The notes under the pieces are model-generated. The model was not told where the DNA came from, ran no database searches, and was given only the letters and a program-made list of their open reading frames with translations. Below, in pieces: positions 11-59,221 of a stretch of 64,000 bases of DNA; the stretch's first letter is position 1; each line of letters begins with the position of its first letter. Origin of the DNA: Deltaproteobacteria bacterium (GTDB lineage: Bacteria > Myxococcota_A > Polyangia > JAAYKL01); the NCBI GenBank assembly GCA_016936575.1, contig JAFGXQ010000082.1, forward strand, positions 333-64,332, read 5' to 3'. A program made the position numbers and the translations under genes.

Positions 11-1438
11 ATGAAAACTTTTTTTACACAGCCATGGGTGTATGTTCTAATCGCAATTGCGATTGTGGTTGGACTTGCAACGTTTTTATTACGGCCGCAA
101 AATCGACATCCACAGCCTTCTTCCACCAGGTTTGAAAAACCGTTTCGTGAACACATGGAACATGCACATCTGGTGAACGGGCCGTTTGCCACCGGCCAGG
201 AGGTTACCGCGGAATGCCTGAAATGCCATCCGGATGCGGCCCGGGATATGATGAAAACCGCACATTGGAAGTGGGTGGGCGCCGAGGTGGAGGTTCCGGA
301 TCACAAAGGGAAGCATCGAATCGGCAAAAGAAATCTGATCAATAACTTCTGCATCGGTATTCAGGGAAACTGGGCATCGTGTACCCGTTGCCATGCTGGA
401 TACGGTTGGGAAGACGACTCGTTTGATTTTGAAAGTGAAACATCGGTCGATTGTCTGGTGTGTCATGACGGCACCGGCTCGTACCAGAAAGGCGCTGCCG
501 GCAATCCCAAAAAAGAGGTGAATCTCGAAGCCGTGGCAAAAAGTGTTGGGTATCCCAAACGCAACAACTGCGGACTTTGCCATAATTTCGGTGGCGGCGG
601 CATGGGTGTGAAACACGGAGATCTGGACGCGAGTCTGAATCATCCCATGGAGAATGATGATGTGCATATGGGAAAACTCGATTTTCTTTGCATCGATTGT
701 CATCAGACGCGCAAACACGACATCCCCGGAAAGTCCATGTCTGTCAGCGTAAATCAGGAAAACGGCGTGTTTTGCACAAAATGCCATGCGGAGGCTCCCC
801 ACGCCGATGCCAGAATCAACGCGCATGTGAACAGCGTCGCATGTGAGACATGTCATATTCCCAGCTATGCGCGCAGAAATCCGACCAAAACCCATTGGGA
901 CTGGTCCAAGGCTGGAGATTCCACCCGACCTGAAGACCCACACCATTATCTGAAAATCAAAGGTGAGTTTCAGTATGCAAATGACATCATTCCCGAGTAC
1001 CGCTGGTACAATGGAACCGCAGCACGTTATTTGTTGGGCGATAAAATCGACCCCTCCCTGGTAACCGCCATTAACCGGCCACTGGGGTCCATTCGTGACA
1101 AACGCGCCAAAATTTATCCGTTCAAAGTTCATTACGCCGTGCAGCCTTATGATGTCGGGAACCTCACCCTGGTTGTCCCGACTACCTCCGGTGACGGCGG
1201 GTACTGGCACGATTTCGATTGGGACAAGGCTTTCGCGCTTGGGGCAAAGGCAACCGGTCTTGCCTACAGTGGAAAATTCGGGTTCACAAATACCGAAATG
1301 TACTGGCCGCTATCGCATATGGTCACTCCGAAGGCGGATGCGCTCACTTGCAACGATTGTCACTCCGATACCGGTCGACTCAATTGGGAAGCGCTCGGCT
1401 ATGAAGGTGATCCCATCGAAACAGGAGGACGAAAATGA
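11..1438 (+). CDS. Membrane-anchored octahaem c-type cytochrome, tetrathionate reductase (Otr)-like family
   Basis: 475-aa ORF with GAGG RBS. N-terminal TM anchor PWVYVLIAIAIVVGLATFLL. Eight CxxCH motifs (CLKCH CTRCH CLVCH CGLCH CIDCH CTKCH CETCH CNDCH). The NNFCIGI..CTRCHAGYGW block matches my recollection of Otr-family octahaems, but an HAO-type octahaem is not excluded. Stop overlaps next start (ATGA 1435-1438). Confidence 0.8.
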   Translation: MKTFFTQPWVYVLIAIAIVVGLATFLLRPQNRHPQPSSTRFEKPFREHMEHAHLVNGPFATGQEVTAECLKCHPDAARDMMKTAHWKWVGAEVEVPDHKGKHRIGKRNLINNFCIGIQGNWASCTRCHAGYGWEDDSFDFESETSVDCLVCHDGTGSYQKGAAGNPKKEVNLEAVAKSVGYPKRNNCGLCHNFGGGGMGVKHGDLDASLNHPMENDDVHMGKLDFLCIDCHQTRKHDIPGKSMSVSVNQENGVFCTKCHAEAPHADARINAHVNSVACETCHIPSYARRNPTKTHWDWSKAGDSTRPEDPHHYLKIKGEFQYANDIIPEYRWYNGTAARYLLGDKIDPSLVTAINRPLGSIRDKRAKIYPFKVHYAVQPYDVGNLTLVVPTTSGDGGYWHDFDWDKAFALGAKATGLAYSGKFGFTNTEMYWPLSHMVTPKADALTCNDCHSDTGRLNWEALGYEGDPIETGGRK

Positions 1439-3717
1439 AACCGCTGATTTTCTATCTGTTCGCACTGCAGCTTTTATTTGCCCTCGTTTCGTTTGCGGGC
1501 GAACCGAGACCACCGGTTACTGAACCCACTGCTTCGTCGACGAAGGCATCCCCGCGGATGCACCCAGCCATTGAACCCCTCAACAGCGTTCGACAGAACG
1601 CGTTTTATACGCATACACCGGTGGATGCCAACGCCACCTGTGGTAATTGTCACGATTCCGCATATATTCAGAAACACAATATCCACCAGCAGAACGGGGC
1701 AAACGTCAACTGCTTTGATTGCCATGTGTCTGACGTGAACGCGTGGTCGAACGCCGAGTTGGATATTTATGGTAGGTTGAGTTCTGAGCGCACCGGTATT
1801 CATCGCGCGAACAATACGGTATGCAGTAAATGCCATGGGGTGGTCGCGCCGTTCGGTCTGGCGGTTCCGGACGACTACGAAAGTCGCGTTATTAATGACG
1901 ATGGCTCCTTTTCGTATGATTTGACTAGATTTACCGGAGTGTTCTTTTCGGGGGTATTCTTTTCAAAAAGTCAATTGAACCTGAAGAATAAGAATGATCT
2001 CAATTTTCCGGCAGATGTTCATGCCCAGAGAATGCTCCGGTGTGCCGACTGCCACCATAGTGCCAACAACCCCGCCAAAGCCGAAAGGAAAAAAAGTCAG
2101 CAACGTCACTTGCGAAAAGACCCGCGCAGCATGTCACTGTCGAGTTATCTGCATCGCCCGGATCATCGACTGGAGGCACCGCAATGTAGCAATTGCCATC
2201 TGCCCACCGAGGCGCATGACTTTTTGCCGTACAAAGAGCGTCATCTTGAAGTTCTTGATTGTCAGGCATGCCACGTGGCCAAAGTATATGGTCCGTTGGT
2301 TTCGGCAATAGACGAAACCGTGGTCACCCGAGACGGGGCTCCCGTGGTGGAATACGCCGCATCAATATCCGGCGGGAATTTGAACGCAAAGCTGAACCCC
2401 GGCATTTCACCGGCGCTGATACCCTATCTGTCTGAAAACGGTAAGGTTCGTGTCGGTAGCTTCAATCTGGTGGCGCATTGGTATTGGGAAGATACCGCCA
2501 CCGGGAAGAAGATCCCCAATAGTGTGATTCGCAAATTTTTCCTCGGTCCCAACGGAGAATACACAGCTGTCGCTATAACGCTGTTTGACAAAGATAAAAA
2601 CGGGAAGCTGAGCAATTCGGAGCTGATGATCGGTACCGAAAAGCAACATACGGTCATTCTAAAATGGCTCACCCAACAGGGGTATGCAGCCCCCAGGCGG
2701 GTTGCGGTGGTAGACGCTTATAAAATAGCGCACGGCATTTCTGAAATGGGGGGAGTCGTGCGGGAGTGTGAAACCTGTCACGGTCAGGACGGACGATTGT
2801 CTCAAAATATTTCGATCACTGCCCGTCTCCCATTCCAGAGCTCCATCGCAGCCGGTGCGCGCATGTCATCGCTGCGCCAGGGATCCCTTAAAACAGACGA
2901 TACGGTTCGCTGGGTGCGGGATGGACAGCACAATGATTACTATGTGTTTGGGTATACACGCGCCGCATGGAGTGATTTGCTCGGATTACTACTGTTCGGG
3001 GCGTCTTTCCTCGGTATTCTATTTCATGGCGGATATCGATTCTACTCTCGTAAAAAACGGGTTTCCTCCCACGGTCCGATGAAACGTGTGTATATGTACT
3101 CGCTGTATGAACGCATCTGGCATTGGCTGATGGCGTCGAGTGTAATTGTATTGCTCACTACGGGGCTAAAGATTCATTTTCCAATGAATCTGTCTTTTGT
3201 TTCATTCCCCACGGCGGTGACACTTCACAATATCACGGCTGTTATACTGGTAATCAACGCGGCGCTCTCGTTGTTCTTTCACCTGGCGAGTGCGGCGATT
3301 GTTCAGTTTATTCCCGAAAAGAAAGGGTTGCTGCAGGCCTTAATTGCTCAGGTCGAGTATTACACCCGCGGTATTTTCCTCGGCCATAAACACCCCGCAG
3401 AAAAAACGCCTGATAAAAAGCTCAATCCGCTTCAGCAACTGACGTATCTGGGCCTGTTGAATGTACTGTTTCCACTTCAGGTGCTGACCGGATTGGCCAT
3501 CTGGTTGAATTCGAAATGGCCGCAACTTCTGGAACCTTTGGGTGGGCTGTCAGTTATCGGGCCGGTTCACAACCTCGGTTCATGGATGTTTCTCACCTTT
3601 CTGGTGGTGCACCTGTATCTTACCACCACCGGTCACACGATCGTATCGAATATTTCAGCGATGATTAATGGATATGACGACATTGATGCCGAAACCGTTG
3701 AAGGAGGCAACAAATGA
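1435..3717 (+). CDS. Fusion protein: periplasmic heptahaem cytochrome c plus C-terminal b-type cytochrome membrane domain (hydrogenase/FdnI cytochrome-b-like); putative quinol dehydrogenase
   Basis: 760-aa ORF with signal peptide (LFALQLLFALVSFAG). Seven CxxCH motifs (CGNCH CFDCH CSKCH CADCH CSNCH CQACH CETCH). Five hydrophobic helices in the last ~250 aa with His in helices (IWHWLMASS, TLHNITAV, FFHLASA, VHNLGSW..VVHLYL). ATGA overlaps at both ends. Confidence 0.8.
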   Translation: MKPLIFYLFALQLLFALVSFAGEPRPPVTEPTASSTKASPRMHPAIEPLNSVRQNAFYTHTPVDANATCGNCHDSAYIQKHNIHQQNGANVNCFDCHVSDVNAWSNAELDIYGRLSSERTGIHRANNTVCSKCHGVVAPFGLAVPDDYESRVINDDGSFSYDLTRFTGVFFSGVFFSKSQLNLKNKNDLNFPADVHAQRMLRCADCHHSANNPAKAERKKSQQRHLRKDPRSMSLSSYLHRPDHRLEAPQCSNCHLPTEAHDFLPYKERHLEVLDCQACHVAKVYGPLVSAIDETVVTRDGAPVVEYAASISGGNLNAKLNPGISPALIPYLSENGKVRVGSFNLVAHWYWEDTATGKKIPNSVIRKFFLGPNGEYTAVAITLFDKDKNGKLSNSELMIGTEKQHTVILKWLTQQGYAAPRRVAVVDAYKIAHGISEMGGVVRECETCHGQDGRLSQNISITARLPFQSSIAAGARMSSLRQGSLKTDDTVRWVRDGQHNDYYVFGYTRAAWSDLLGLLLFGASFLGILFHGGYRFYSRKKRVSSHGPMKRVYMYSLYERIWHWLMASSVIVLLTTGLKIHFPMNLSFVSFPTAVTLHNITAVILVINAALSLFFHLASAAIVQFIPEKKGLLQALIAQVEYYTRGIFLGHKHPAEKTPDKKLNPLQQLTYLGLLNVLFPLQVLTGLAIWLNSKWPQLLEPLGGLSVIGPVHNLGSWMFLTFLVVHLYLTTTGHTIVSNISAMINGYDDIDAETVEGGNK
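1936..1965 (+). repeat. In-frame imperfect 15-bp tandem duplication (GVFFS-GVFFS) inside the cytochrome fusion gene
   Basis: ggagtgttcttttcg / ggggtattcttttca are adjacent and in frame. Confidence 0.6.
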
Positions 3718-4238
3718 TCTTTTCACGAAAACCCAAAGAATACATCAATCCATACCTGGGCGGCACGTTGCTCGGGGTGGTTCTGTTTCTGGCGTTTTAT
3801 ATTACCGGAAACGGTCTGGGGGCCTCCGGAGCGATTAATCGAGTGATGGTCGCCATTCTTGAATTATTTGCTCCGTCGCATGTGGATCACGTCGGGTACC
3901 TGGCGCACATGGGCGGCGGCACCAGCTTTTCATTGGAAAACAGTGGTGTCGCCATGCTGCTGGGTACAATCCTCGGCGGATTCGCTTCGGGGTTGTTCAA
4001 CGGCCGCGTGAAGGTTGAAATTCGAAAGGGCCCCTCCATCACACCCAGAACTCGAATCATCATGGCACTTCTGGGCGGTCTGGTGATGGGATACGGCGCC
4101 CGGCTGGCCCGTGGATGCACTTCCGGTCAGGCGTTGAGCGGGGGCGCGGTACTTTCTGTCGGGTCGTTTGCCTTTATGTTCAGCATCTTCATCGGTGCCT
4201 ATGCCCTGGCGTATTTCGTACGCAGGTTGTGGAACTAG
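3714..4238 (+). CDS. YeeE/YedE-family sulfur-compound (thiosulfate-type) transporter, half-size subunit 1
   Basis: 174-aa hydrophobic ORF. YeeE/YedE signature RLARGCTSGQALSGG. Start overlaps upstream stop (ATGA 3714-3717). Confidence 0.8.
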   Translation: MIFSRKPKEYINPYLGGTLLGVVLFLAFYITGNGLGASGAINRVMVAILELFAPSHVDHVGYLAHMGGGTSFSLENSGVAMLLGTILGGFASGLFNGRVKVEIRKGPSITPRTRIIMALLGGLVMGYGARLARGCTSGQALSGGAVLSVGSFAFMFSIFIGAYALAYFVRRLWN

Positions 4239-4250
4239 GAGGCAACGACT

Positions 4251-5594
4251 ATGGCACCTTTTGATTTTAGCGCGTTTGCAGGAACCCTCCCTTACTACAC
4301 CATATTTCTGGTTATCGGCATTGCATTCGGTGCGGTGTTGGAGCTGAGCGGATTCGGAGATTCGCGAAAATTGGCGGCGCAGTTTTACCTGACGGACCTT
4401 ACCGTTTTGAAAGTCATGTTCACGGCGATTGTTGTCGCCTGCGTTTTGATATTCAGTGCGTCGGCACTAGGACTGCTGGAATTCAGCCGCGTCTGGGTGA
4501 ACCCCACCTACCTGGTTCCGGGAATTATCGGCGGATTGATTATGGGCGTCGGATTTATACTGGGCGGATTTTGTCCCGGCACATCGGTCGTTGCGGCGTC
4601 CACATTCAAACTCGATGGTCTGGCTTTCGTCGGCGGCGTCGGGTTAGGCACGCTACTTTTCAGTGAAACCGCATCATTGCTCGGCGACGCGAGACACGAC
4701 ACGTTTATGGGGCGCTTCATGTTGAATGAACTGTTCGGCGTACCGGTGGGAATTGCGGTGGTACTTCTGATCTCAATGGCGCTGATGATGTTCTGGGCAG
4801 CGGAACTTGCGGAAAAATATTTTGGGCGGAATGAAAAAATAACCAAAGATGCATTGCTGCCCAAAAATAAAAAGAAAATCGCAGCCGCCGGGGTACTGTT
4901 TTCTGGTGCAGTTTTGGTTGCGGTATTGGGACAACCGGGTTCAATGGAAAAATGGGAGGCCGTGGCGAAAAAGTCAAAAATCTCCCTGGAAAACAGAGAT
5001 CCGTTTATTCATCCGGCCGAGGTGGTGGAATGGCGCGCTGAAAATTCTGTATATGTTCGTATACTGGATGTTCGCAGCGAAGATGATTTCAACAAGTTTC
5101 ATCTATTAGGGGCGATACGCGTGACTGAGCAATCTTTGACCGATGCCGAATATGTGAAAGTGTTGAAAAATGTTCCCGACAATACCCTTACCTTTGTCGT
5201 ATCAAATACAGAAGAATACGCCACAGCCGCTTGGAAACGACTTGTGGGAAGCGGAGTGAAAAATGTGTATATCATTGAAGGTGGAATCAACAACTGGTTG
5301 AAACTGTACCCCACCGACCCATGCGTTTCGACACCGATTACCGATAGAAAGCTGAAAAAAGAAGAATTGGCGTTTCGATTTGCCAAATCTGTTGGCGGAA
5401 GCTGCTACGCCGCGCATCCGGAAGCGCAATTCAAGGAACCACCGACTGATTGTTATATGGAAGCTCACCCGGAACTGAAAAATAAAAGTAAGTCGGTTAC
5501 TCGGGATGTTCCTTTTGATGCAAATAAGAAGCACAAGTTTACAAGGAAAGTTAAAATGAGAAAATCAAACGGACCGGTGGGCGGCTGTGGCTGA
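4251..5594 (+). CDS. YeeE/YedE-family half-size subunit 2 fused to a rhodanese-homology domain without catalytic Cys, plus Cys/His-containing tail
   Basis: 447-aa ORF with AGGAGG upstream. TM domain carries the GGFCPGTS motif. Residues ~253-352 look like a rhodanese fold (RILDVRSEDDFNKFHLLGAIRV ... IIEGGINNW), but the active-site loop reads FVVSNTEEYA. Tail contains CYAAHPE, CYMEAHPE and a terminal GGCG. Confidence 0.8.
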   Translation: MAPFDFSAFAGTLPYYTIFLVIGIAFGAVLELSGFGDSRKLAAQFYLTDLTVLKVMFTAIVVACVLIFSASALGLLEFSRVWVNPTYLVPGIIGGLIMGVGFILGGFCPGTSVVAASTFKLDGLAFVGGVGLGTLLFSETASLLGDARHDTFMGRFMLNELFGVPVGIAVVLLISMALMMFWAAELAEKYFGRNEKITKDALLPKNKKKIAAAGVLFSGAVLVAVLGQPGSMEKWEAVAKKSKISLENRDPFIHPAEVVEWRAENSVYVRILDVRSEDDFNKFHLLGAIRVTEQSLTDAEYVKVLKNVPDNTLTFVVSNTEEYATAAWKRLVGSGVKNVYIIEGGINNWLKLYPTDPCVSTPITDRKLKKEELAFRFAKSVGGSCYAAHPEAQFKEPPTDCYMEAHPELKNKSKSVTRDVPFDANKKHKFTRKVKMRKSNGPVGGCG

Positions 5595-6285
5595 GTATTT
5601 GTCTCCTCTTCAAACCGGAAAGCTGATTCAACGGTACAAGCGTTTTCTGGCAGATATTCAACTGGATTCCGGTGAACAAATCACCGCCCATGTGCCCAAT
5701 ACCGGTTCGATGCTCAGTACAAAAGCAGCGGGGTCACCGGTTGCGGTGTCGTATCATCCAGCGCCCCATCGCAAATTGAAATGGACATTGGAACTGGTTA
5801 AATCTCACAACACCTGGGTGGGCGTGAATACATCTGTCAGCAACAGAATGGTGGAAGAAGCGATTGAAGACAAAAAAATCAAGTCGCTTGTCGGGTATGA
5901 CCATATTCGTCGCGAGGTGAAATACGGAGTGAACAGCCGAGTTGATTTGCTGTTGGAGCGGGCTGATGAACGCTGTTACGTGGAAGTGAAAAACGTCACC
6001 TATAAAGACGGAGACGGCGCCTATTTCCCTGACGCGGTTACCGAACGGGGTCGCAAACACCTGCGGGAGCTGACCCAAATGGTAAAAGAGGGGCACCGGG
6101 CGGTGATCTTTTTTCTGGTAAATCGAAATGACTGCAGCTTCATGTCGCCGGCTGCCGACATCGACCCGGCCTACGCCGAAGCACTGATAACCGCCACCGA
6201 CAGCGGCGTGCTCGCCCTCGCCTACCGCTTCGAACAACACCTGACCGGCTACCGCATCGATAAAAAAATACCCATTCGCTTATAG
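5587..6285 (+). CDS. sfsA: Sugar fermentation stimulation protein SfsA
   Basis: 232-aa ORF. GTG start overlaps the upstream gene by 8 nt. LIQRYKRFLADI...HVPNTGSM N-terminus is typical of SfsA. Confidence 0.85.
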   Translation: MAEYLSPLQTGKLIQRYKRFLADIQLDSGEQITAHVPNTGSMLSTKAAGSPVAVSYHPAPHRKLKWTLELVKSHNTWVGVNTSVSNRMVEEAIEDKKIKSLVGYDHIRREVKYGVNSRVDLLLERADERCYVEVKNVTYKDGDGAYFPDAVTERGRKHLRELTQMVKEGHRAVIFFLVNRNDCSFMSPAADIDPAYAEALITATDSGVLALAYRFEQHLTGYRIDKKIPIRL

Positions 6286-6467: not shown

Positions 6468-6813
6468 TTGACAGGACGGATTTCTGATATTCCGAACAAT
6501 GATTCGTTCATCGCAATAGAAAGAGTTGGACAACTTATTAGATTGGTTCGAGGACAAAAAGTCATTTTGGACTCAGATTTAGCGCAAATTTATGAAGTCG
6601 AAACAAAGACTCTAAATAGAGCTGTAAAAAGAAATATAGAACGTTTCCCTGAGGACTTCATGTTTCAACTCAACAAAGATGAATACTTGAAGTGCCCAAT
6701 TGGTACCTCAAGTAAACCATGACAAACAGCTAAACGCTATCTATGACATCATCACTAAACTCATGGCGCAAGATGTAAAATCTGGCAATAAAACGATTGG
6801 CTTCAAGCAATGA
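6468..6813 (+). pseudogene. ORF6N-domain (phage/mobile-element-associated DNA-binding) gene remnant with internal deletion and frameshift
   Basis: N-terminal ORF6N block ([37 protein letters not shown]) stops at 6722. A family-typical C-terminal block (KQLNAIYDIITKLMAQDVKSGNKTIGFKQ*) continues in another frame at 6724-6813. The central part of the family is missing. Surroundings are AT-rich. Confidence 0.6.
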
Positions 6814-41457: not shown

Positions 41458-42567
41458 CTATGAAATGGCGGCGTAGTCTTCACCTGACGTTTCTTCAGAC
41501 ATGGAAGCCGCAGGGTATTGACGGTGGGTGACGGTGTTCATGGAGAGATCCCGCTCATGCAGATACTCGGCGACCTGGTCCTGTTTTCCACACGAATTTC
41601 CAAGACGAATCACTTCGAATAGCAAATCGTCATCTGTGGGCCTGAAGTTGGACGCATCCATCATGTCCAGGTACGCGGTTTCCGTGTCTCCCAGATACTC
41701 ACTGACTACCGCGTGTCCGCGCAACGCCGCAACCATACAAGGCGATTTGTTCAATGCCGCCGAGAAAAACACGTTCGCGCCATCGAGGTCATCATTTAAC
41801 GCTGCCAGCCGACCCAGCCCGCACATTGCCCGGGCGCATTCTGAATCGATACGCAACGTTTCGCTCAATGCCACGTAGCCCTGCCGAGTATTGCCCGCCA
41901 GGTCGTGACAAGCTGCCAGAAGCAGTGCGTATTCTCTAACTGCCGACATGCTGTCCAGGTGTTCATCCAGTTCTCCCAGTGCTTCCACTGCTATTTGCCA
42001 GTCTCCCTGTGCGAGATGTCGTTCCACCCGCTGAAACGTCTGATAGTGAAGATTCGCCGACTTGCTGCATGACCAAAGTCTGAAATACGGGCCGTTATTG
42101 GTATGACGTATGTGTTCAAATCCGTTTCGCACCAGCACCGCGTGTATCTCCTCATCGCTGTACTGGCCGTATTCGCCTTCGAGAGGCAATTTTCCGCGCC
42201 AGGGAATTTCAGTTGTCATATAAAACGGCGCATGCTCATCCATCACCTTCCAAAGCCACCGATACACCGCATGGGGTTCAGCCACACGGGAAGGCCCGAA
42301 TAACCATATGGCCATCTTTACATCTGACAACCAGGGCTGTCCCGTTTCCATATCGCTCACGTCAAACCCCAACGGTGCATCCCCACGGACAAACGCTTTT
42401 CCGCTCAACCACATGAACCCGCCGGGCCGGCCGTTCGGATACGAAACGATTTCCACGATGGGCCCATCAATTTTACGGGCTTTCTCGCGGATGAGATCGT
42501 ATTTCAGAATATTTCTTGCTTCACGCAACGCCTTTTCAGGCTCGATACTGACGCTGTTCATATCCAT
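41458..42567 (-). CDS. TPR-repeat protein with an N-terminal domain of unknown function (weakly methyltransferase-fold-like)
   Basis: C-terminal half shows TPR-like helical repeats (YALLLAACHDLAGNTRQGY, ..AMCGLGRLAALNDDLDGA). The N-terminal call is weak. Confidence 0.6.
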   Translation of the reverse strand: MDMNSVSIEPEKALREARNILKYDLIREKARKIDGPIVEIVSYPNGRPGGFMWLSGKAFVRGDAPLGFDVSDMETGQPWLSDVKMAIWLFGPSRVAEPHAVYRWLWKVMDEHAPFYMTTEIPWRGKLPLEGEYGQYSDEEIHAVLVRNGFEHIRHTNNGPYFRLWSCSKSANLHYQTFQRVERHLAQGDWQIAVEALGELDEHLDSMSAVREYALLLAACHDLAGNTRQGYVALSETLRIDSECARAMCGLGRLAALNDDLDGANVFFSAALNKSPCMVAALRGHAVVSEYLGDTETAYLDMMDASNFRPTDDDLLFEVIRLGNSCGKQDQVAEYLHERDLSMNTVTHRQYPAASMSEETSGEDYAAIS

Positions 42568-43279
42568 AACAGTTCACCTCCAACGACTCGCTGATTGCGG
42601 GAAAATACCAATTGAGCGCCATGGCATTTTCTTTTCTTTCATCTCCGTACATGGGAATTCCCACTTCTGCTTCCGGAGATCCTGCGGAAGTTGCTGCTTT
42701 GATAGGTACTGAAAACCGAAATCCCGCGCCCCGTTCTTCGGGCTCAAAATATTCCACACGTCCGTTCAGTTCTTTGGCCTTTTCGCTGGCCAGATGAAGT
42801 CCGAAACCCGTATCCCATTCACCTACTCGAGTAGAAAAACCGGGTGCCATCAGGTTCTTTTTAATTACGTCGGGAATCACCGCGTCCTTGCCGATGGCAT
42901 CCACACCCGCGTATCCGCCTCTCCACCATGTTTTCAAAACGACAGTCCCGGGCCCCGGCTCCACAGCGGCCGATGCGTTCTCGCCGATGTCTACAATCAG
43001 CGGAACCATCTGCGACAACGAAATGCTCGTCGGCGGAATCAACGGATCTATCACCACTTCAATCGAAATATTACGGAGAGATAATTTTTCAGCAAGCTTG
43101 TTGGCCGCTGCTTGAGTGGCATGATTCAAGTCTCTGATGACCCCGTCGGACGTGTCGGTGGAGTAGTCGATGCAGGTTCCCACGTATTGCCATACGCCGG
43201 CCTGCGGCACCTCTGCCAACCTTACTTCAGGGGATACGATTTTGGTTGAAGCATCAATGGTAATGGTTTTTAGCGTCAT
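42536..43279 (-). CDS. Sensor-less histidine-kinase-like protein (HATPase_c domain; H-box apparently degenerate)
   Basis: N-box IVDIGENASAAV, F-box/G2 APGFSTRVGEWDTGFGLHLA, GAGFRFSVPI. H-box-like GVIRDLNHATQAA has Arg where His is expected. Start chosen at Met47 (ATG at 43279, AAGGGG RBS). Confidence 0.6.
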   Translation of the reverse strand: MTLKTITIDASTKIVSPEVRLAEVPQAGVWQYVGTCIDYSTDTSDGVIRDLNHATQAAANKLAEKLSLRNISIEVVIDPLIPPTSISLSQMVPLIVDIGENASAAVEPGPGTVVLKTWWRGGYAGVDAIGKDAVIPDVIKKNLMAPGFSTRVGEWDTGFGLHLASEKAKELNGRVEYFEPEERGAGFRFSVPIKAATSAGSPEAEVGIPMYGDERKENAMALNWYFPAISESLEVNCYGYEQRQYRA

Positions 43280-43376
43280 TTTATCGACCCCTTTTTTATG
43301 CACCGCCGCGTTCAAGGTGGCATCCAACATGGTGTACCGCCCCATGACGCGACGAATTGTTGTCGCCTGCGCGATT

Positions 43377-43787
43377 TTATGCCTCGCGGATTTGCTGCGT
43401 CCCCGAAGAAATCGCAATTGCCTCTTGCCAGGTCATATGAAGCTCTTCCAGAGCGGAAATAACCGGCACGAGCGGTTCACTGGTCATAGTGTTGTATGCA
43501 TCAGTCATTTTTTCCATCATCGAGTGGTACAACGACTGCAAATCCGCACACAGTTCCGGCGCCAGATCAAAATCAAGCGAATCAATGAAATGCTCAATAA
43601 TCCAGTACGCCTTTCCGAGACTGAACAGTTGCTCTGCCGTCTTGTCACCGGAATCGATTTCTTCTCTGGCCTGTTTCACATTCCGAATTGCGCTGGCGTA
43701 CAGTGCTAACAACAGCTCATTGCGATTCATCTCCTTCGGGATGGGAACTACAGGCGTTTGTTCAACGTTTCGAAGTTCGTTCTGCAT
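43377..43787 (-). CDS. fliS: Flagellar export chaperone FliS (divergent copy 1)
   Basis: 136 aa. The LLLALYASAIRNVKQAREEI...AYWIIEHFIDSLDFDLAPELCADLQSLYHSM pattern matches FliS. Directly downstream of a flagellin gene. Confidence 0.8.
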   Translation of the reverse strand: MQNELRNVEQTPVVPIPKEMNRNELLLALYASAIRNVKQAREEIDSGDKTAEQLFSLGKAYWIIEHFIDSLDFDLAPELCADLQSLYHSMMEKMTDAYNTMTSEPLVPVISALEELHMTWQEAIAISSGTQQIREA

Positions 43788-55240: not shown

Positions 55241-58200
55241 TTACTGAACGGTACAATCACTTTTGCGCACGAGGTCGTACTGATTGTTGTTGGTGTCGAT
55301 ACCGTTGCCGATGCGCGCGAAGCAGGTGGCTTTGACGTTCGTAAACGCATTGGGCTGGGTTTCGGCGGATTGCTCAAAACCTTCCATTACTTCAAACGAA
55401 TCAATGAGCAGATCGCTGCACACCAGCTGATATGAAAAGCTGCTTTTCGGCGGAATGTGCGTTACGTTCTGCGTATCTTCGATGGTTCGCCACGGCACGT
55501 CGAGACTGGTGACAAACACGCGACCGTCTGCGGGAACCGTTCCGGAAAGCTGCAGAGACGGCCCCTCAGTGGGGACAGTTTCCGAATCGGGAGTGGTATC
55601 TGTGTCGAATTCAGCAGCAGGCAAAGGACGAATCAACTGACAGTTTTCAAGAGATGTTCCCGGTTCCATCTGAAGTTCAACGTAGGTATTGTCAATTTCG
55701 GTACTCACCTGACGAATAATTGCGGGCTGCCGAACATTCACCATGTAGTACCCGAATGTACCCATTTCACCTCGCAACTCCAGTTCTTCCACGTCACTCG
55801 CGTTCACATATAAAATCGGATCCGGACCCCCGGCGAAATTTGTGGTGGACATTACTGCCATATCATTCTCGTCATATGCAGTCAGAACCGTATCGGGAGT
55901 GGAACGGCCAAGACGATCGAGGGTTCGTGCAGATATTACAATGGCGATTCGACAGTCTGCGTCAGGAAGCATCTCGGTAATATTATCAGTGTATGGCGCA
56001 ATATCCATCGTCGTAAGGTCACCATCTGCCGTATATTTTGTATAGTTTTCAAGTTCTTCAAAATACAACATCGGAGATACACAAGGAGTCACACCATCCA
56101 TGTTTTGACCGGTAGAATCCGTATCAGCGTTTTCGCTATCATTCACTTCTGTGGTATCGGTATCACCCATGTCTGACACTTCAAGGGGTTCGTTCAAATG
56201 CCCCATCGAAGTAATGGTGAACTGATATCCTTCTGTCGCACCGCCCACGATCTGATTTTTCTGACTGGACGCCCACAGCACAAAACGTTTGTTACCAAAA
56301 ACCCATAACACACCGTCATCAGCAACTGCCTTGAGGTTTCCCCTGTCGAACCAATCCACCAGATGGACCGTTGCCGGTGTATAATATTCCGGGGCGGTTT
56401 TAAATGCGACCACTTTAACGAAAGTAACCGGTTTTGACAGAATATCTTCTACATTTTCCCATGGAAAAGATACGGTGGTATATGCCGCTGTCTCACCGAA
56501 ATCAGAAGACGACCTCGTGTCCTGAAAGCCGACTTCCACTGAATCCAAATTCACCTGCTCTGTAACGGGCATGTCTTTGTCGCCAATCGACCAGAATCCG
56601 ATTGCCGCCCCCTGAGAAGTTGTTACGCCGACAGGTATTCTTAAATTGTATTCAGACAGTTCCGCTTCCCTTGCCAACCCGTAGCTGAAATCCGCCGTCA
56701 TCGTTGCTGAAATACTGCCTTCGTCAGAAATATTGTCAACATCGGCATCATAGCCCGAAATGATTGGAGATACCCGCGTAACCAATGACCCTAGAAGCGG
56801 TCGATTCTCAGCGGACATCGACGGCAATTGAATATTTAAAAACCCAACATTTCGCGCCCCTGGAACCACAGAGGATGGGTTCAATGTAGCCGTGAGGGAA
56901 TCGTCTTCGTCGCCGTTTTCGTCAAATGCGTCCACAATTTCGACGGGAATCACAAATTGACGTCCGTCAATCGACACGGTCACACCGAACCAGCCGCCTG
57001 GCCCCTCCTCTTCGAGTGAAAACACGATGGCGATGCCGGTCTCACTTTGATTTTCAGCAGTGGTGTAGTAGCGTTCCACGTTCACGCCGATATCTTCGTA
57101 AATAGAAATTCCGGTGGGTTTCCCGACGTACGCTCCGTCGAGTGTCGCAAACACTTTGCCGAGGCCTTTCGCACGGGAAATAGACATTTGTTTCACGCTG
57201 CGCAGCGGCATCGTATCGTCTTTTTCGGCGCGCAAATTCACCGCCTGTTGTTGCCCCCCGCTGTAGAAATAGAATGTTTTTATGCCTCGCCGGACACTGC
57301 GTGAAATATTCAGCGTAACGGTTGCGGTGCTCTGCATGTCCGGATCCAACACCATCTCTTCCACCTGTATTCCGGCGTCGTTGATGAACAGCTGTGTGTC
57401 CGGCCCAAATGTGAATCCTCCCTGGCCTGAAAACACAATCGTTGCGGTTCGGTTCGCCAGCCAGATGATTTCGAAGTCGCTCAATATGTACGCTCCTTGC
57501 CCCAGAGCCGGCTCCACATCAAAGAAACCTTCATCGCTGAATTTCTTTACATTGCTGTATGTTGTCATGCTCATGGGCCCGGTCGGTGCATCCGCCTCAA
57601 CGGAGAAATCATCCAGCACCAGATGTTCGTTGTATTCTGAAATATCGGTATCTGTGTTGTCGTCTTCCTCCAGTGTATCGGAAGGAATACCGCCGTACAG
57701 ATAAAAATCTGCCAGTGTGTCCTTATAAAATTTTCCGACCTGTTTCTTCACCACTTCCTCATCGTCCTCGCCGCGATTCGCCGTATCTAATTTTATAAGG
57801 GCGTTACCGGCCACCTGATTGATCAATAGATGGGTGACGATTTCATCGGTTCCATTTGTAAACTGCAACCGTATTGAGTCAACCCCGGAGGTTGCTTGAG
57901 CCTGCACCCACAGCGCCCATTCCTTGGGCCCCATCATGCGACGAACAATCGTGACACTGGAATCGACAGGGAACACCTCCCATGACGCATCGAATTCAAA
58001 ACCAATCGGCTTTACAAAAACCAGTTGCTTCGGACACTCATCTCCGATGTGGCAATTCGCACCGGCGGTTCCACAGGCGCAGCTCGGAATGATGGGGGGA
58101 GAAAGCTGAACAGCGTGGTCGTCAAAACCGGTGGGGACAATATTGACCGATGCATATGACACTGCACCGTCGAGACTGATCATCATCGCTGCCGGTCCGA

Positions 58201-59221
58201 GAATGGCGGAATTATCGACCGTCACGGTGCAAAACGCTTTCAGCGGATCGCTTGCAGATATGCGAATAGAGCTTTTATCCACAATAATTCCCGGATTCTG
58301 GGGAAACTCAAATGACAGATATGGAGCACTTCCAACGTATGTATCGGGGGCTTTCAACAAGTCATCTTTGCTGGTGATGGTAAGATCGTATTGGACCTCA
58401 GCGCCGTTATACAACGGTTTTCCCAGTCGCGTCGGGGTAATGGAAATGGTCGGATGCTCTCCGGGAACAATATTGATTTCTCCGTAATAAACCGTCGGAT
58501 AACTCACCAACATGACCTCAACCGCTTTTTTCCTGGAATCGTCTATTCCGGGGTCCAACGCAAGCTCAGATACATCGAGCACAACCGTCACGATTGTATT
58601 TTGCTCATTAATTGAGATGTCCTGAACCAGAATATCGTCGTCATCCACGCTGAAAAAGATGCTGGTCGGCTTGCTGGAAAACGTGGGCGGCATTTCGGTA
58701 TCGTCGCCAACGAGGGAAATATGAATTTCCTGCTCGGACTTTCCGTTCACCAGATAGCCGGGTTCAAATTGAAGATTGTATTCCTGAATTTTTTTTCGAA
58801 CATAAAATCGCGCCGAAACCCGTTCATTCGTATTACATTGAAATTCAAGCACATAGGTTCCCGAAGGCACATTCTGCCCCAATGACAACGAAATCGCCAT
58901 CCGCTCTGAAGATACGTGTTCCATGGCGGCCAACTGAATTTGACTTTGACGGGTTTGGGTGGTCGCATCGAAAAAAGAAAAATGAACCGCCAGATATTCA
59001 ATCGGCTGAGAATCCCAATCGTCTAGAGTTTCACATGTGCTGAAATCAATTGTGCCGCCGGTGATATCAACCAGCACTTCTTCACCCACATACATGGTTG
59101 CGGGCTTCATCAACACCGGCGCATTCGGTAGAACGTCGGAGGACGGCTTACATCCGAATAGCATTATGACTGCGAAAAACCAACAAATATGAAAGGTTCT
59201 CAAAGCTCTACTTGCAAGCAT
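55241..59221 (-). CDS. Giant (1326-aa) acidic lipoprotein of unknown function
   Basis: Uninterrupted ORF. Lipobox MLFGCK. No catalytic or repeat motif recognised by eye. Confidence 0.75.
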   Translation of the reverse strand: MLASRALRTFHICWFFAVIMLFGCKPSSDVLPNAPVLMKPATMYVGEEVLVDITGGTIDFSTCETLDDWDSQPIEYLAVHFSFFDATTQTRQSQIQLAAMEHVSSERMAISLSLGQNVPSGTYVLEFQCNTNERVSARFYVRKKIQEYNLQFEPGYLVNGKSEQEIHISLVGDDTEMPPTFSSKPTSIFFSVDDDDILVQDISINEQNTIVTVVLDVSELALDPGIDDSRKKAVEVMLVSYPTVYYGEINIVPGEHPTISITPTRLGKPLYNGAEVQYDLTITSKDDLLKAPDTYVGSAPYLSFEFPQNPGIIVDKSSIRISASDPLKAFCTVTVDNSAILGPAAMMISLDGAVSYASVNIVPTGFDDHAVQLSPPIIPSCACGTAGANCHIGDECPKQLVFVKPIGFEFDASWEVFPVDSSVTIVRRMMGPKEWALWVQAQATSGVDSIRLQFTNGTDEIVTHLLINQVAGNALIKLDTANRGEDDEEVVKKQVGKFYKDTLADFYLYGGIPSDTLEEDDNTDTDISEYNEHLVLDDFSVEADAPTGPMSMTTYSNVKKFSDEGFFDVEPALGQGAYILSDFEIIWLANRTATIVFSGQGGFTFGPDTQLFINDAGIQVEEMVLDPDMQSTATVTLNISRSVRRGIKTFYFYSGGQQQAVNLRAEKDDTMPLRSVKQMSISRAKGLGKVFATLDGAYVGKPTGISIYEDIGVNVERYYTTAENQSETGIAIVFSLEEEGPGGWFGVTVSIDGRQFVIPVEIVDAFDENGDEDDSLTATLNPSSVVPGARNVGFLNIQLPSMSAENRPLLGSLVTRVSPIISGYDADVDNISDEGSISATMTADFSYGLAREAELSEYNLRIPVGVTTSQGAAIGFWSIGDKDMPVTEQVNLDSVEVGFQDTRSSSDFGETAAYTTVSFPWENVEDILSKPVTFVKVVAFKTAPEYYTPATVHLVDWFDRGNLKAVADDGVLWVFGNKRFVLWASSQKNQIVGGATEGYQFTITSMGHLNEPLEVSDMGDTDTTEVNDSENADTDSTGQNMDGVTPCVSPMLYFEELENYTKYTADGDLTTMDIAPYTDNITEMLPDADCRIAIVISARTLDRLGRSTPDTVLTAYDENDMAVMSTTNFAGGPDPILYVNASDVEELELRGEMGTFGYYMVNVRQPAIIRQVSTEIDNTYVELQMEPGTSLENCQLIRPLPAAEFDTDTTPDSETVPTEGPSLQLSGTVPADGRVFVTSLDVPWRTIEDTQNVTHIPPKSSFSYQLVCSDLLIDSFEVMEGFEQSAETQPNAFTNVKATCFARIGNGIDTNNNQYDLVRKSDCTVQ

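Follow-up and report, generated by a model that had tools for sequence, protein, structure and literature searches.

The window analysed in our study is a stretch of 64,000 nucleotides from a Deltaproteobacteria bacterium (assembly GCA_016936575.1, contig JAFGXQ010000082.1, positions 333 to 64,332 of the forward strand). At its beginning, four closely packed and translationally coupled open reading frames (ORFs), here named ORF1 to ORF4, were found. ORF1 encodes an octahaem c-type cytochrome of the Otr family, ORF2 (760 amino acids, nucleotides 1435-3717) encodes a fusion of a multihaem domain with a cytochrome b, and ORF3 and ORF4 (the latter of 447 amino acids, nucleotides 4251-5594) encode two half-size YeeE/YedE proteins resembling PmpA and PmpB, the second of which continues into a rhodanese-fold domain and a cysteine-containing tail (Table 1). 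ATGA start/stop overlaps connect ORF1 with ORF2 at 1435-1438 and ORF2 with ORF3 at 3714-3717. ORF3 and ORF4 are separated by a gap of 12 nucleotides, where an AGGAGG sequence at 4237-4242 overlaps the stop codon of ORF3; the same hexamer was also present at 1423 and 3702, ahead of ORF2 and ORF3. The four ORFs with their coordinates, the two overlaps and the gap with its AGGAGG had been described in an earlier note on this DNA, and all of them were found as claimed there. The string GAGGCAAC(A/G)A, placed after the Shine-Dalgarno sequence and before the ATG codon, was common to ORF1, ORF3 and ORF4 (1-14, 3700-3716 and 4236-4253, respectively).

Table 1. Features of the Otr cassette and of the genes on either side of it (nucleotide positions in the window unless a locus is named)
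Feature	Position	Strand	Basis
ORF1, Otr-family octahaem c-type cytochrome, 475 aa	11..1438	+	8 CxxCH, TIGR04315
ORF2, N-terminal part: signal peptide and periplasmic heptahaem c domain	1435..2964	+	7 CxxCH, Cytochrome_C7
ORF2, C-terminal part: PhsC-like membrane dihaem cytochrome b	2965..3717	+	Ni_hydr_CYTB
ORF3, PmpA-like C-terminal half of a YeeE/YedE channel, 174 aa	3714..4238	+	Sulf_transp
ORF4, membrane part: PmpB-like N-terminal YeeE half and 2 more TM helices	4251..4937	+	Sulf_transp
ORF4, rhodanese-fold domain	5013..5306	+	Pfam Rhodanese
ORF4, C-terminal extension with a basic stretch and a terminal G-G-C-G-COOH	5307..5591	+	homologue conservation
Upstream ArsR/SmtB-family regulator gene, 97 aa	stop codon 1..3; remainder outside the window, at L002 9700-9993	+	profile match
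sfsA	5587..6285	+	TIGR00230, 243 bits

Judged by its sequence, ORF1 is a bona fide member of the Otr family. It scored 561.9 bits against TIGR04315 (curated cut-off 375 bits) and 204.6 bits against Pfam Cytochrome_cB, and it aligned end to end with the OTR of Shewanella (1SP3; E = 5e-144). The next models for cytochromes of the nitrogen or sulfur cycle stayed below 45 bits, and HAO, NrfA and MccA were not near, so that the family placement proposed in the earlier note was confirmed. The CxxCH motifs of ORF1 were found at residues 69, 124, 148, 187, 227, 255, 278 and 447, and a hydrophobic anchor or signal was present at residues 9-27. Lys56 and Cys64 of 1SP3 have their counterparts in Lys106 (326-328) and Cys114 (350-352) of ORF1, which were both invariant in an alignment of 20 diverse family sequences. 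Mowat and co-workers are said to have described Lys56 in 2004 as an unusual ligand of the active-site haem, with Cys64 as its neighbour. In vitro, the best activities of OTR are those with nitrite and hydroxylamine, and its tetrathionate activity is very low. Deletion of otr from Shewanella in a Δttr background gave no tetrathionate phenotype, the addition of tetrathionate to sediment microcosms was followed by a 36-fold upregulation of otr, and the literature as of 2026 holds no confirmed physiological function for the enzyme. In a single spring, 73 genomes of 14 phyla were reported to encode OTR.

The N-terminal part of ORF2 matched Cytochrome_C7 with 37.5 bits (cut-off 24.8) and contained seven CxxCH motifs. 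Residues 555-746 matched Ni_hydr_CYTB (PF01292) with 89.4 bits (cut-off 30.1), and one extra transmembrane (TM) helix joins this cytochrome b to the periplasmic haem domain. The best NCBIfam match of ORF2 was PhsC (NF011582) with 118 bits, which is below the cut-off of 204 bits. It is plausible that ORF2 works as an electron wire from quinol to haem, with its cytochrome b as the proposed site for quinol or quinone. The route for quinol electrons that had been suggested earlier for the fusion thus stays plausible, and its membrane part can now be described as a PhsC-like cytochrome b.

In YeeE, which is oriented N-out/C-in, helices H1-H6 and H8-H13 are inverted with respect to each other, and YeeE/TsuA imports thiosulfate. 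PmpA and PmpB are adjacent half-size YeeE proteins with one essential cysteine in each half, and PmpB has about 130 amino acids and four TM helices. In our study, ORF3 matched the Pfam Sulf_transp profile with 77.8 bits (cut-off 27) at profile positions 175-309, which is the C-terminal half of YeeE, and ORF4 matched with 46.0 bits at profile positions 11-196 over its first ~230 residues, which is the N-terminal half. Cys135 of ORF3 (4116-4118), within an invariant R-G-C-T-S-G sequence, corresponds to Cys293 on the periplasmic side of YeeE and was kept in all 75 homologues aligned. Cys108 of ORF4 (4572-4574), within FCPGTS, corresponds to Cys91 of YeeE and was kept in 120 of 120 close homologues. 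The motifs read earlier from these two proteins were partly correct: GCTS is present in ORF3 (residues 134-137), and ORF4 contains F-C-P-G (107-110), not G-C-P-G. ORF3 was predicted to be N-in/C-in, and ORF4 to be N-out with six TM helices. With the full ORF4 model, Foldseek returned matches to rhodanese domains only, and YeeE (6LEO) was not among its top matches; the membership of ORF4 in the YeeE fold therefore rests on Pfam and on sequence.

No equivalent of Cys22 of YeeE was found in ORF3 or ORF4, and no YeeD/TusA-like gene in any cassette examined. Against the TsuA/YeeE equivalog models NF041049 and NF052577, the two proteins scored only 16-35 bits, where the cut-offs are 400-645. The pair is of the PmpA/PmpB type, and the import of thiosulfate, which had been attributed to it, is not established. 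Five loci (L048, L075, L085, L086 and L087) were found to contain a PmpB-like ORF of about 200 amino acids followed by a separate rhodanese-tail match, which is either a natural gene split or a frameshift. In two loci from long-read metagenome-assembled genomes (L008 and L014), the PmpB-like ORF looks frameshifted.

The part of ORF4 that follows the channel half was found to combine a rhodanese fold with a thiol at the extreme C-terminus. The domain matched Pfam Rhodanese with 47.8 bits (cut-off 22.2), and Foldseek matched it to single-domain rhodaneses, including GlpE and 3mzz, with a target TM-score of up to 0.77. Ser318 (5202-5204) aligns with the catalytic cysteine in the CGSGFRS loop of 6mxv. 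Among the 120 close homologues, this position was occupied by serine in 112 and by cysteine in none. On these alignments the domain is predicted to be catalytically dead, and an active sulfurtransferase was rejected as a role for ORF4, since the catalytic cysteine is absent.

ORF4 ends with G-G-C-G-COOH (5580-5591), in which the cysteine is Cys446 (5586-5588). The terminal GGCG was found in 112 of the 120 close homologues and GGC[G/S] in 119. Of 97 full-length representatives that were 30-55% identical, 87 had a cysteine within the last three residues, as had 56 of the 57 full-length ORFs from the fetched loci. The endings seen in proteins of this type were GGCG, GGCGG, GGC, REGC and RRGC, and a few distant members had the exact GGCGG. 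SoxY carries its substrate-binding cysteine in a C-terminal GGCGG ('VTIGGC'). No Pfam match to SoxY or SoxZ was found in ORF4, and no SoxZ gene in the cassettes. The AlphaFold model of ORF4 had a predicted local distance difference test score (pLDDT) of 87.6 and a predicted template modelling score of 0.82, and only its last five residues, which are thus predicted to be flexible, were below a pLDDT of 50. Cys358 and Cys401, each present in 108 of the 120 homologues, were co-conserved and may form a periplasmic disulfide.

Since the N-out YeeE half is followed by two further TM helices, which makes six, the tail of ORF4 would lie outside. Its predicted periplasmic position is drawn from homology to YeeE, from the number of TM helices and from charge bias: lysine and arginine were more frequent in the predicted 'in' loops than in the 'out' loops in 119 of 119 ORF4 homologues, with a mean excess of 6.6. 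The earlier note had let the rhodanese tail process imported thiosulfate, which does not agree with a domain that has no catalytic cysteine and is predicted to be periplasmic, not cytoplasmic. The invariant GGCG thiol at the C-terminus had been overlooked there.

The neighbourhood of otr was surveyed in a genome set of 24 Otr loci and in a metagenome set of 80 loci, the latter retrieved with a family-wide Otr alignment. Both sets were ranked by likeness to the window protein, and the fractions given here hold for the corresponding section of the Otr family only. The order Otr, haem/cytochrome b, PmpA-like protein and PmpB-like protein with tail was recurrent across the 24 genome loci wherever the flanking sequence sufficed. 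A pmpA-like gene followed otr in 22 of these 24 loci, in at least seven phylum-level groups; the hosts belong to the Gammaproteobacteria, Spirochaetota, Myxococcota, Fibrobacteria, Anaerolineales/Chloroflexota, Kapaibacterium and Hyphomicrobiales. Among the metagenome loci, 28 had 6 kb or more of sequence downstream, and in 27 of these both Pmp proteins and the rhodanese tail were encoded. The same order of genes was seen in 72 independent loci, far more than chance would give, and every Pmp-linked locus came from a metagenome-assembled genome or a metagenome contig. The linkage of Otr with half-size YeeE proteins, which the earlier note had proposed to look for in related genomes, is thus strongly conserved, and it provides contextual evidence for a sulfur substrate. 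Because the genes flanking the cassettes were unrelated between loci, the four genes together with their regulator are a mobile cassette. In some loci of the Anaerolineales/Chloroflexota, a second, divergently oriented Otr paralogue, about 45% identical, was observed upstream of the cassette (L017, 5949-7298, minus strand; L025, 2-214, minus strand).

A rough neighbour-joining tree of 78 context-typed Otr proteins was midpoint-rooted and carries no bootstrap support, and its sampling is biased. In this tree, the 72 Pmp-linked Otr genes covered the whole range, including the deepest branch, and the Otr proteins of Shewanella, Marinobacter and Malonomonas formed one clade nested within them. The otr genes of Shewanella and Marinobacter lie behind the genes for a monohaem cytochrome c and a DUF3373 protein, and Pmp genes, the cytochrome b fusion and the carrier tail are missing there; the otr gene of Malonomonas stands alone. 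From this distribution, linkage to Pmp genes seems to be the majority context of Otr and possibly the ancestral one. In lucinid symbionts, a divergent soxY/soxZ pair is reported to adjoin otr.

Distant Pmp pairs were also found beside other enzymes. A pair ending in REGC follows a molybdopterin/iron-sulfur (FeS)/NrfD operon, whose catalytic subunit was closest by far to PhsA (527 bits). A pair ending in GGC follows Otr (540 bits) and a separate PhsC-like cytochrome b (L120), and another pair (L118) has a two-domain rhodanese on one side and a SufS-like enzyme on the other. When the C-terminal motifs were compared with the partners, GGCG was seen with Otr and the fused c7/cytochrome b, (K/A)GGC with Otr and a separate cytochrome b, REGC with the PhsA-like molybdoenzyme and RRGC with the rhodanese and the SufS-like enzyme. 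The C-terminal motif of the PmpB tail thus seems to track the partner enzyme, with one to three examples of each kind (L117, L118, L120, L023 and L024, compared with the window).

An arsR gene precedes the cassette in the window. As its stop codon occupies nucleotides 1-3, 7 nucleotides ahead of ORF1, the start of the operon lies outside the window, and the operon probably begins with arsR, which has an intergenic region of 190 nucleotides upstream. The best sigma-70-like site, TTGACA-16-CATATT (10 of 12 positions), was found upstream of arsR (L002, 9620-9647). Scans for promoters and terminators gave counts no higher than the shuffled expectation, and only the site upstream of arsR was sensibly placed. 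The regulator scored 80.1 bits against the NCBIfam model HTH_metalloreg (cut-off 55), and its next best match was BigR with 57.4 bits (cut-off 155). It is nearest to BigR, YgaV and SqrR and lacks their cysteine positions. The regulator did not match the BigR/SqrR type of persulfide sensor: the BigR score was below the cut-off, Cys42 of BigR aligns with a serine and the positions of the C-terminal cysteines do not match. Among the ArsR proteins adjoining other cassettes, 26 of the 30 aligned (e.g. L108, L103 and L020) belong to a subgroup of about 120 amino acids with a single conserved cysteine in helix alpha1, within HAxIC-x-AL-x-DP. The window ArsR has a leucine at this position and a cysteine set of its own (C34, C39, C44, C91 and C95). 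Some cassettes were preceded by Rrf2 regulators, which showed weak similarity to NsrR, were equally near to IscR, SufR and CymR and stayed below every equivalog cut-off. Taken together, the regulators did not point decisively to an inducer.

We consider it highly probable that the genes of the cassette work together as one unit, and it is likely that its substrate is a sulfur (chalcogen) compound. The best reading of our analysis is that of a carrier-assisted periplasmic sulfur oxidoreductase, encoded by a self-contained cassette for respiration or sulfur handling under the control of a regulator. The mechanism that we propose for it is put forward tentatively, at somewhat less than an even chance. 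The rhodanese-fold domain and the thiol arm of ORF4 would lie in the periplasm beside Otr. Cys446 would covalently take up the sulfane sulfur of persulfide or polysulfide, or an S-thiosulfonate group from tetrathionate or thiosulfate, and the arm would present the bound sulfur to the active-site haem of Otr, in the pocket of Lys106 and Cys114. Electrons would pass from quinol over two b haems, seven c haems and the eight haems of Otr to the reductive cleavage of the S-S bond. Sud, which feeds polysulfide-sulfur to Psr, and SoxY, which presents adducts to the Sox enzymes, would be the analogues. The dead rhodanese domain could serve as a docking or scaffold module that positions the arm. With the arm above the mouth of the channel, sulfur might also be relayed from Cys446 to Cys135 of ORF3 on the outer side, to Cys108 of ORF4 on the inner side and into the cytoplasm, where it may feed assimilation or be sensed by the ArsR or Rrf2 regulator.

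For the reductive direction the evidence is weak; it consists of the PhsC-like cytochrome b, the PhsA-like partner of a pair elsewhere and the anaerobic-fermentative functions encoded by the window genes. Several observations weigh against the proposed mechanism. A protein of the Ni_hydr_CYTB type does not reveal in which direction electrons flow, as the family spans both quinol oxidases and quinone reductases. In some cassettes (L005, L093, L095 and L106) the haem/cytochrome b gene is missing and the Pmp pair directly follows Otr, so that the electron donor must be encoded elsewhere and the proposed route for electrons is not a universal one. The neighbourhood of L118 fits trafficking or assimilation, not respiration. 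Purified OTR of the Shewanella type prefers nitrite and hydroxylamine in vitro, the regulators vary by locus between ArsR and Rrf2 and give no clear signal, and the resemblance to SoxY is at the level of the motif, with neither a SoxY fold nor SoxZ. The terminal thiol may have another role, e.g. as a redox-active thiol or as a ligand of a metal or haem.

The main rival of this carrier-arm mechanism is an oxidative, Sox-like direction, in which Otr would couple sulfide or thiosulfate to Cys446 as SoxXA does, electrons would go to quinone and the PmpAB pair would import sulfane sulfur for cytoplasmic oxidation or sensing. It would account for the SoxY-type terminus of ORF4 and agrees with soxY-S3/soxZ adjoining otr in sulfur-oxidising symbionts, with the import of SoxYZ-derived sulfur by the YeeE-like SoxT and with the reduction of quinone by Ni_hydr_CYTB cytochromes b in hydrogenases and formate dehydrogenases. 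However, PhsC, the closest cytochrome b family, belongs to a reductase, and a PhsA/PsrA-like reductase elsewhere is served by the same carrier pair. The couple of the thiosulfate/tetrathionate type, at +198 mV, is too positive for the reduction of quinone, which leaves only the oxidation of sulfide as feasible. The host, moreover, appears to live by anaerobic fermentation, and the window was found to lack genes for sulfur oxidation (Dsr, sHdr or others). We regard the oxidative direction as unlikely. The model of the earlier note, in which the substrate of Otr is free tetrathionate or a related oxyanion, reduced in the periplasm, the YeeE halves import the thiosulfate and the tail plays a minor part, appears more doubtful still. 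The reduction of tetrathionate by OTR in vitro, the 36-fold response of otr in sediment microcosms, the import of thiosulfate by YeeE/TsuA and the conserved synteny all speak for it. It leaves the invariant terminal cysteine and the conserved dead rhodanese domain unexplained, and the predicted periplasmic position of the tail, the scores far below the TsuA cut-offs and the missing YeeD/TusA partner also speak against it. Free tetrathionate as the substrate was also not supported by the very low activity of OTR in vitro or by the Shewanella knockout in the Δttr background, though the latter represents the other type of gene context.

A system for selenium or tellurium was also considered, with periplasmic reduction of selenite or tellurite, entry of selenium through a YedE-like channel and a thiol arm carrying selenium. 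The best NCBIfam match of ORF3 was the YedE/FdhT selenium-metabolism protein (46.9 bits) and that of the ORF4 tail a 'rhodanese-related (seleno)protein' (26.8 bits), both far under their cut-offs. The rhodanese of L118 weakly matches ExtH of a selenite/tellurite reduction operon and a SufS/SclA-like enzyme adjoins it, and YedE-like transport of selenium occurs in Methanococcus. Every such match, however, is weak and below the curated cut-offs, whereas the partners that match strongly (Otr, PhsA-like and PhsC-like proteins) are sulfur enzymes; the hosts are abundant in sulfidic sediments, and no selD or selenoprotein context was seen. We give this system a small chance. A nitrogen-oxide reductase, in which Otr would act on nitrite, hydroxylamine or NO and the Pmp pair would be unrelated or a mere anchor, could invoke the in vitro preferences of OTR and the weak NsrR similarity of the Rrf2 regulators ahead of some cassettes. 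The start/stop overlaps, the near-universal synteny and the strictly conserved cysteines of channel and arm speak for functional coupling instead, the Rrf2 matches are just as near to IscR, SufR and CymR, and the Pmp pair accompanies a PhsA-like enzyme as well, which together make this explanation very improbable.

Returning to the carrier-arm mechanism, a wider form of it can be stated, which we consider rather doubtful at present. Sulfur carried covalently on a protein thiol, and not a free oxyanion, would be the native substrate of Otr, the membrane cassette would be the ancestral and majority form of the system, and PmpA with PmpB-tail would be a general 'sulfur hand-off' adaptor for Otr or for Psr/Phs-like enzymes. 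The soluble Shewanella enzyme, under study for 20 years, would then be a derived orphan, which would explain its lack of a clear substrate or phenotype.

Downstream of the cassette, the start of sfsA was found to be ambiguous. With GTG at 5587 the gene overlaps ORF4 by 8 nucleotides, as stated in the earlier note, whereas with TTG at 5599, the start annotated by NCBI, there is no overlap. The annotated contig is JAFGTB010000059.1 of assembly GCA_016934495.1, perhaps from a Zodletone spring metagenome, and it is also assembled from the runs SRR13394436 and SRR13394437. The gene is possibly co-transcribed with the cassette here. It was rejected as a member of the module, since no SfsA match adjoined the cassette in any other locus. 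An ORF of 84 amino acids (6468-6722, plus strand), with an ORF6N domain according to the precomputed Pfam annotation of the contig, was observed alone between sfsA and an M32 peptidase gene; a mobile element may have left it behind. No Pfam match at E <= 1e-5 was found for an ORF of 1326 amino acids at 55241-59221 or for two adjacent ORFs of 369 and 293 amino acids at 41458-42567 and 42536-43417, all three on the minus strand. The Rfam scan of the whole 64,000-nucleotide window gave zero matches.

All domains of the cassette belong to known families. What is new is the PmpB-rhodanese(Ser)-GGCG architecture, the predicted role as a periplasmic carrier and the near-obligate partnership with much of the Otr family. 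In public annotation, proteins of the ORF4 type are named 'YeeE/YedE family protein', 'rhodanese-related sulfurtransferase' or hypothetical. No description of Otr with a module of YeeE/YedE, rhodanese and cytochrome b was found in the full-text literature, with most subscription journals outside its coverage. Genes for OTR are widely used as metagenomic markers of 'tetrathionate reduction' though the physiological role of the enzyme is unproven, and Otr combined with a sulfur channel and a carrier thiol gives a first concrete and testable hypothesis for the substrate of most members of the family. The architecture of ORF4, in which a channel subunit carries a dead rhodanese domain, predicted to be periplasmic, and ends like SoxY, bears on an open question in the literature, the passage of carrier-bound periplasmic sulfur across the membrane.

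Compared with known systems, ORF1 is ~50% identical to Shewanella OTR (1SP3) over the whole fold and has the eight CxxCH motifs and the Lys56/Cys64 equivalents in common with it, but, unlike OTR, it probably has a membrane anchor and is served by a quinol module of its own. PhsC of PhsABC is the best family match for the membrane domain of ORF2 as well as for the stand-alone cytochrome b of L120. Unlike PhsC, ORF2 is fused to a heptahaem c domain and has no docking FeS subunit, and its score lies under the PhsC cut-off. PmpA/PmpB, YeeE and SoxT share the same halves and the equivalents of Cys293 and Cys91 with ORF3 and ORF4, and the order of pmpA followed by pmpB is as here. ORF3 fits PmpA in size, whereas ORF4 exceeds PmpB by two TM helices, the dead rhodanese domain and the thiol at its C-terminus. 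SoxT imports SoxYZ-derived sulfur for oxidation and signalling, a YedE-like protein moves selenium in Methanococcus, and a model of an inward relay through YeeE/YedE has been published. SoxYZ is a periplasmic carrier with its cysteine in a glycine-rich extreme C-terminus, GGCGG as compared with GGCG-COOH in ORF4. The arm of ORF4 is, unlike SoxY, fused to a subunit of a membrane channel, and its partner is the quinol-linked octahaem Otr, whereas those of SoxYZ are SoxXA, SoxB and SoxCD. Sud of Wolinella is a polysulfide-sulfur transferase serving PsrABC (PMC6378623), and secreted rhodanese-like proteins are known from Psr operons. In Sud/Psr, a periplasmic rhodanese fold with a single functional cysteine serves a quinol-dependent sulfur reductase. 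The cysteine of Sud, however, lies in the active-site loop of the rhodanese, whereas the loop of ORF4 has a serine and its cysteine is at the C-terminus; the carrier of ORF4 is tethered to a membrane channel, and the reductase beside it is a multihaem cytochrome, where Psr is a molybdoenzyme.

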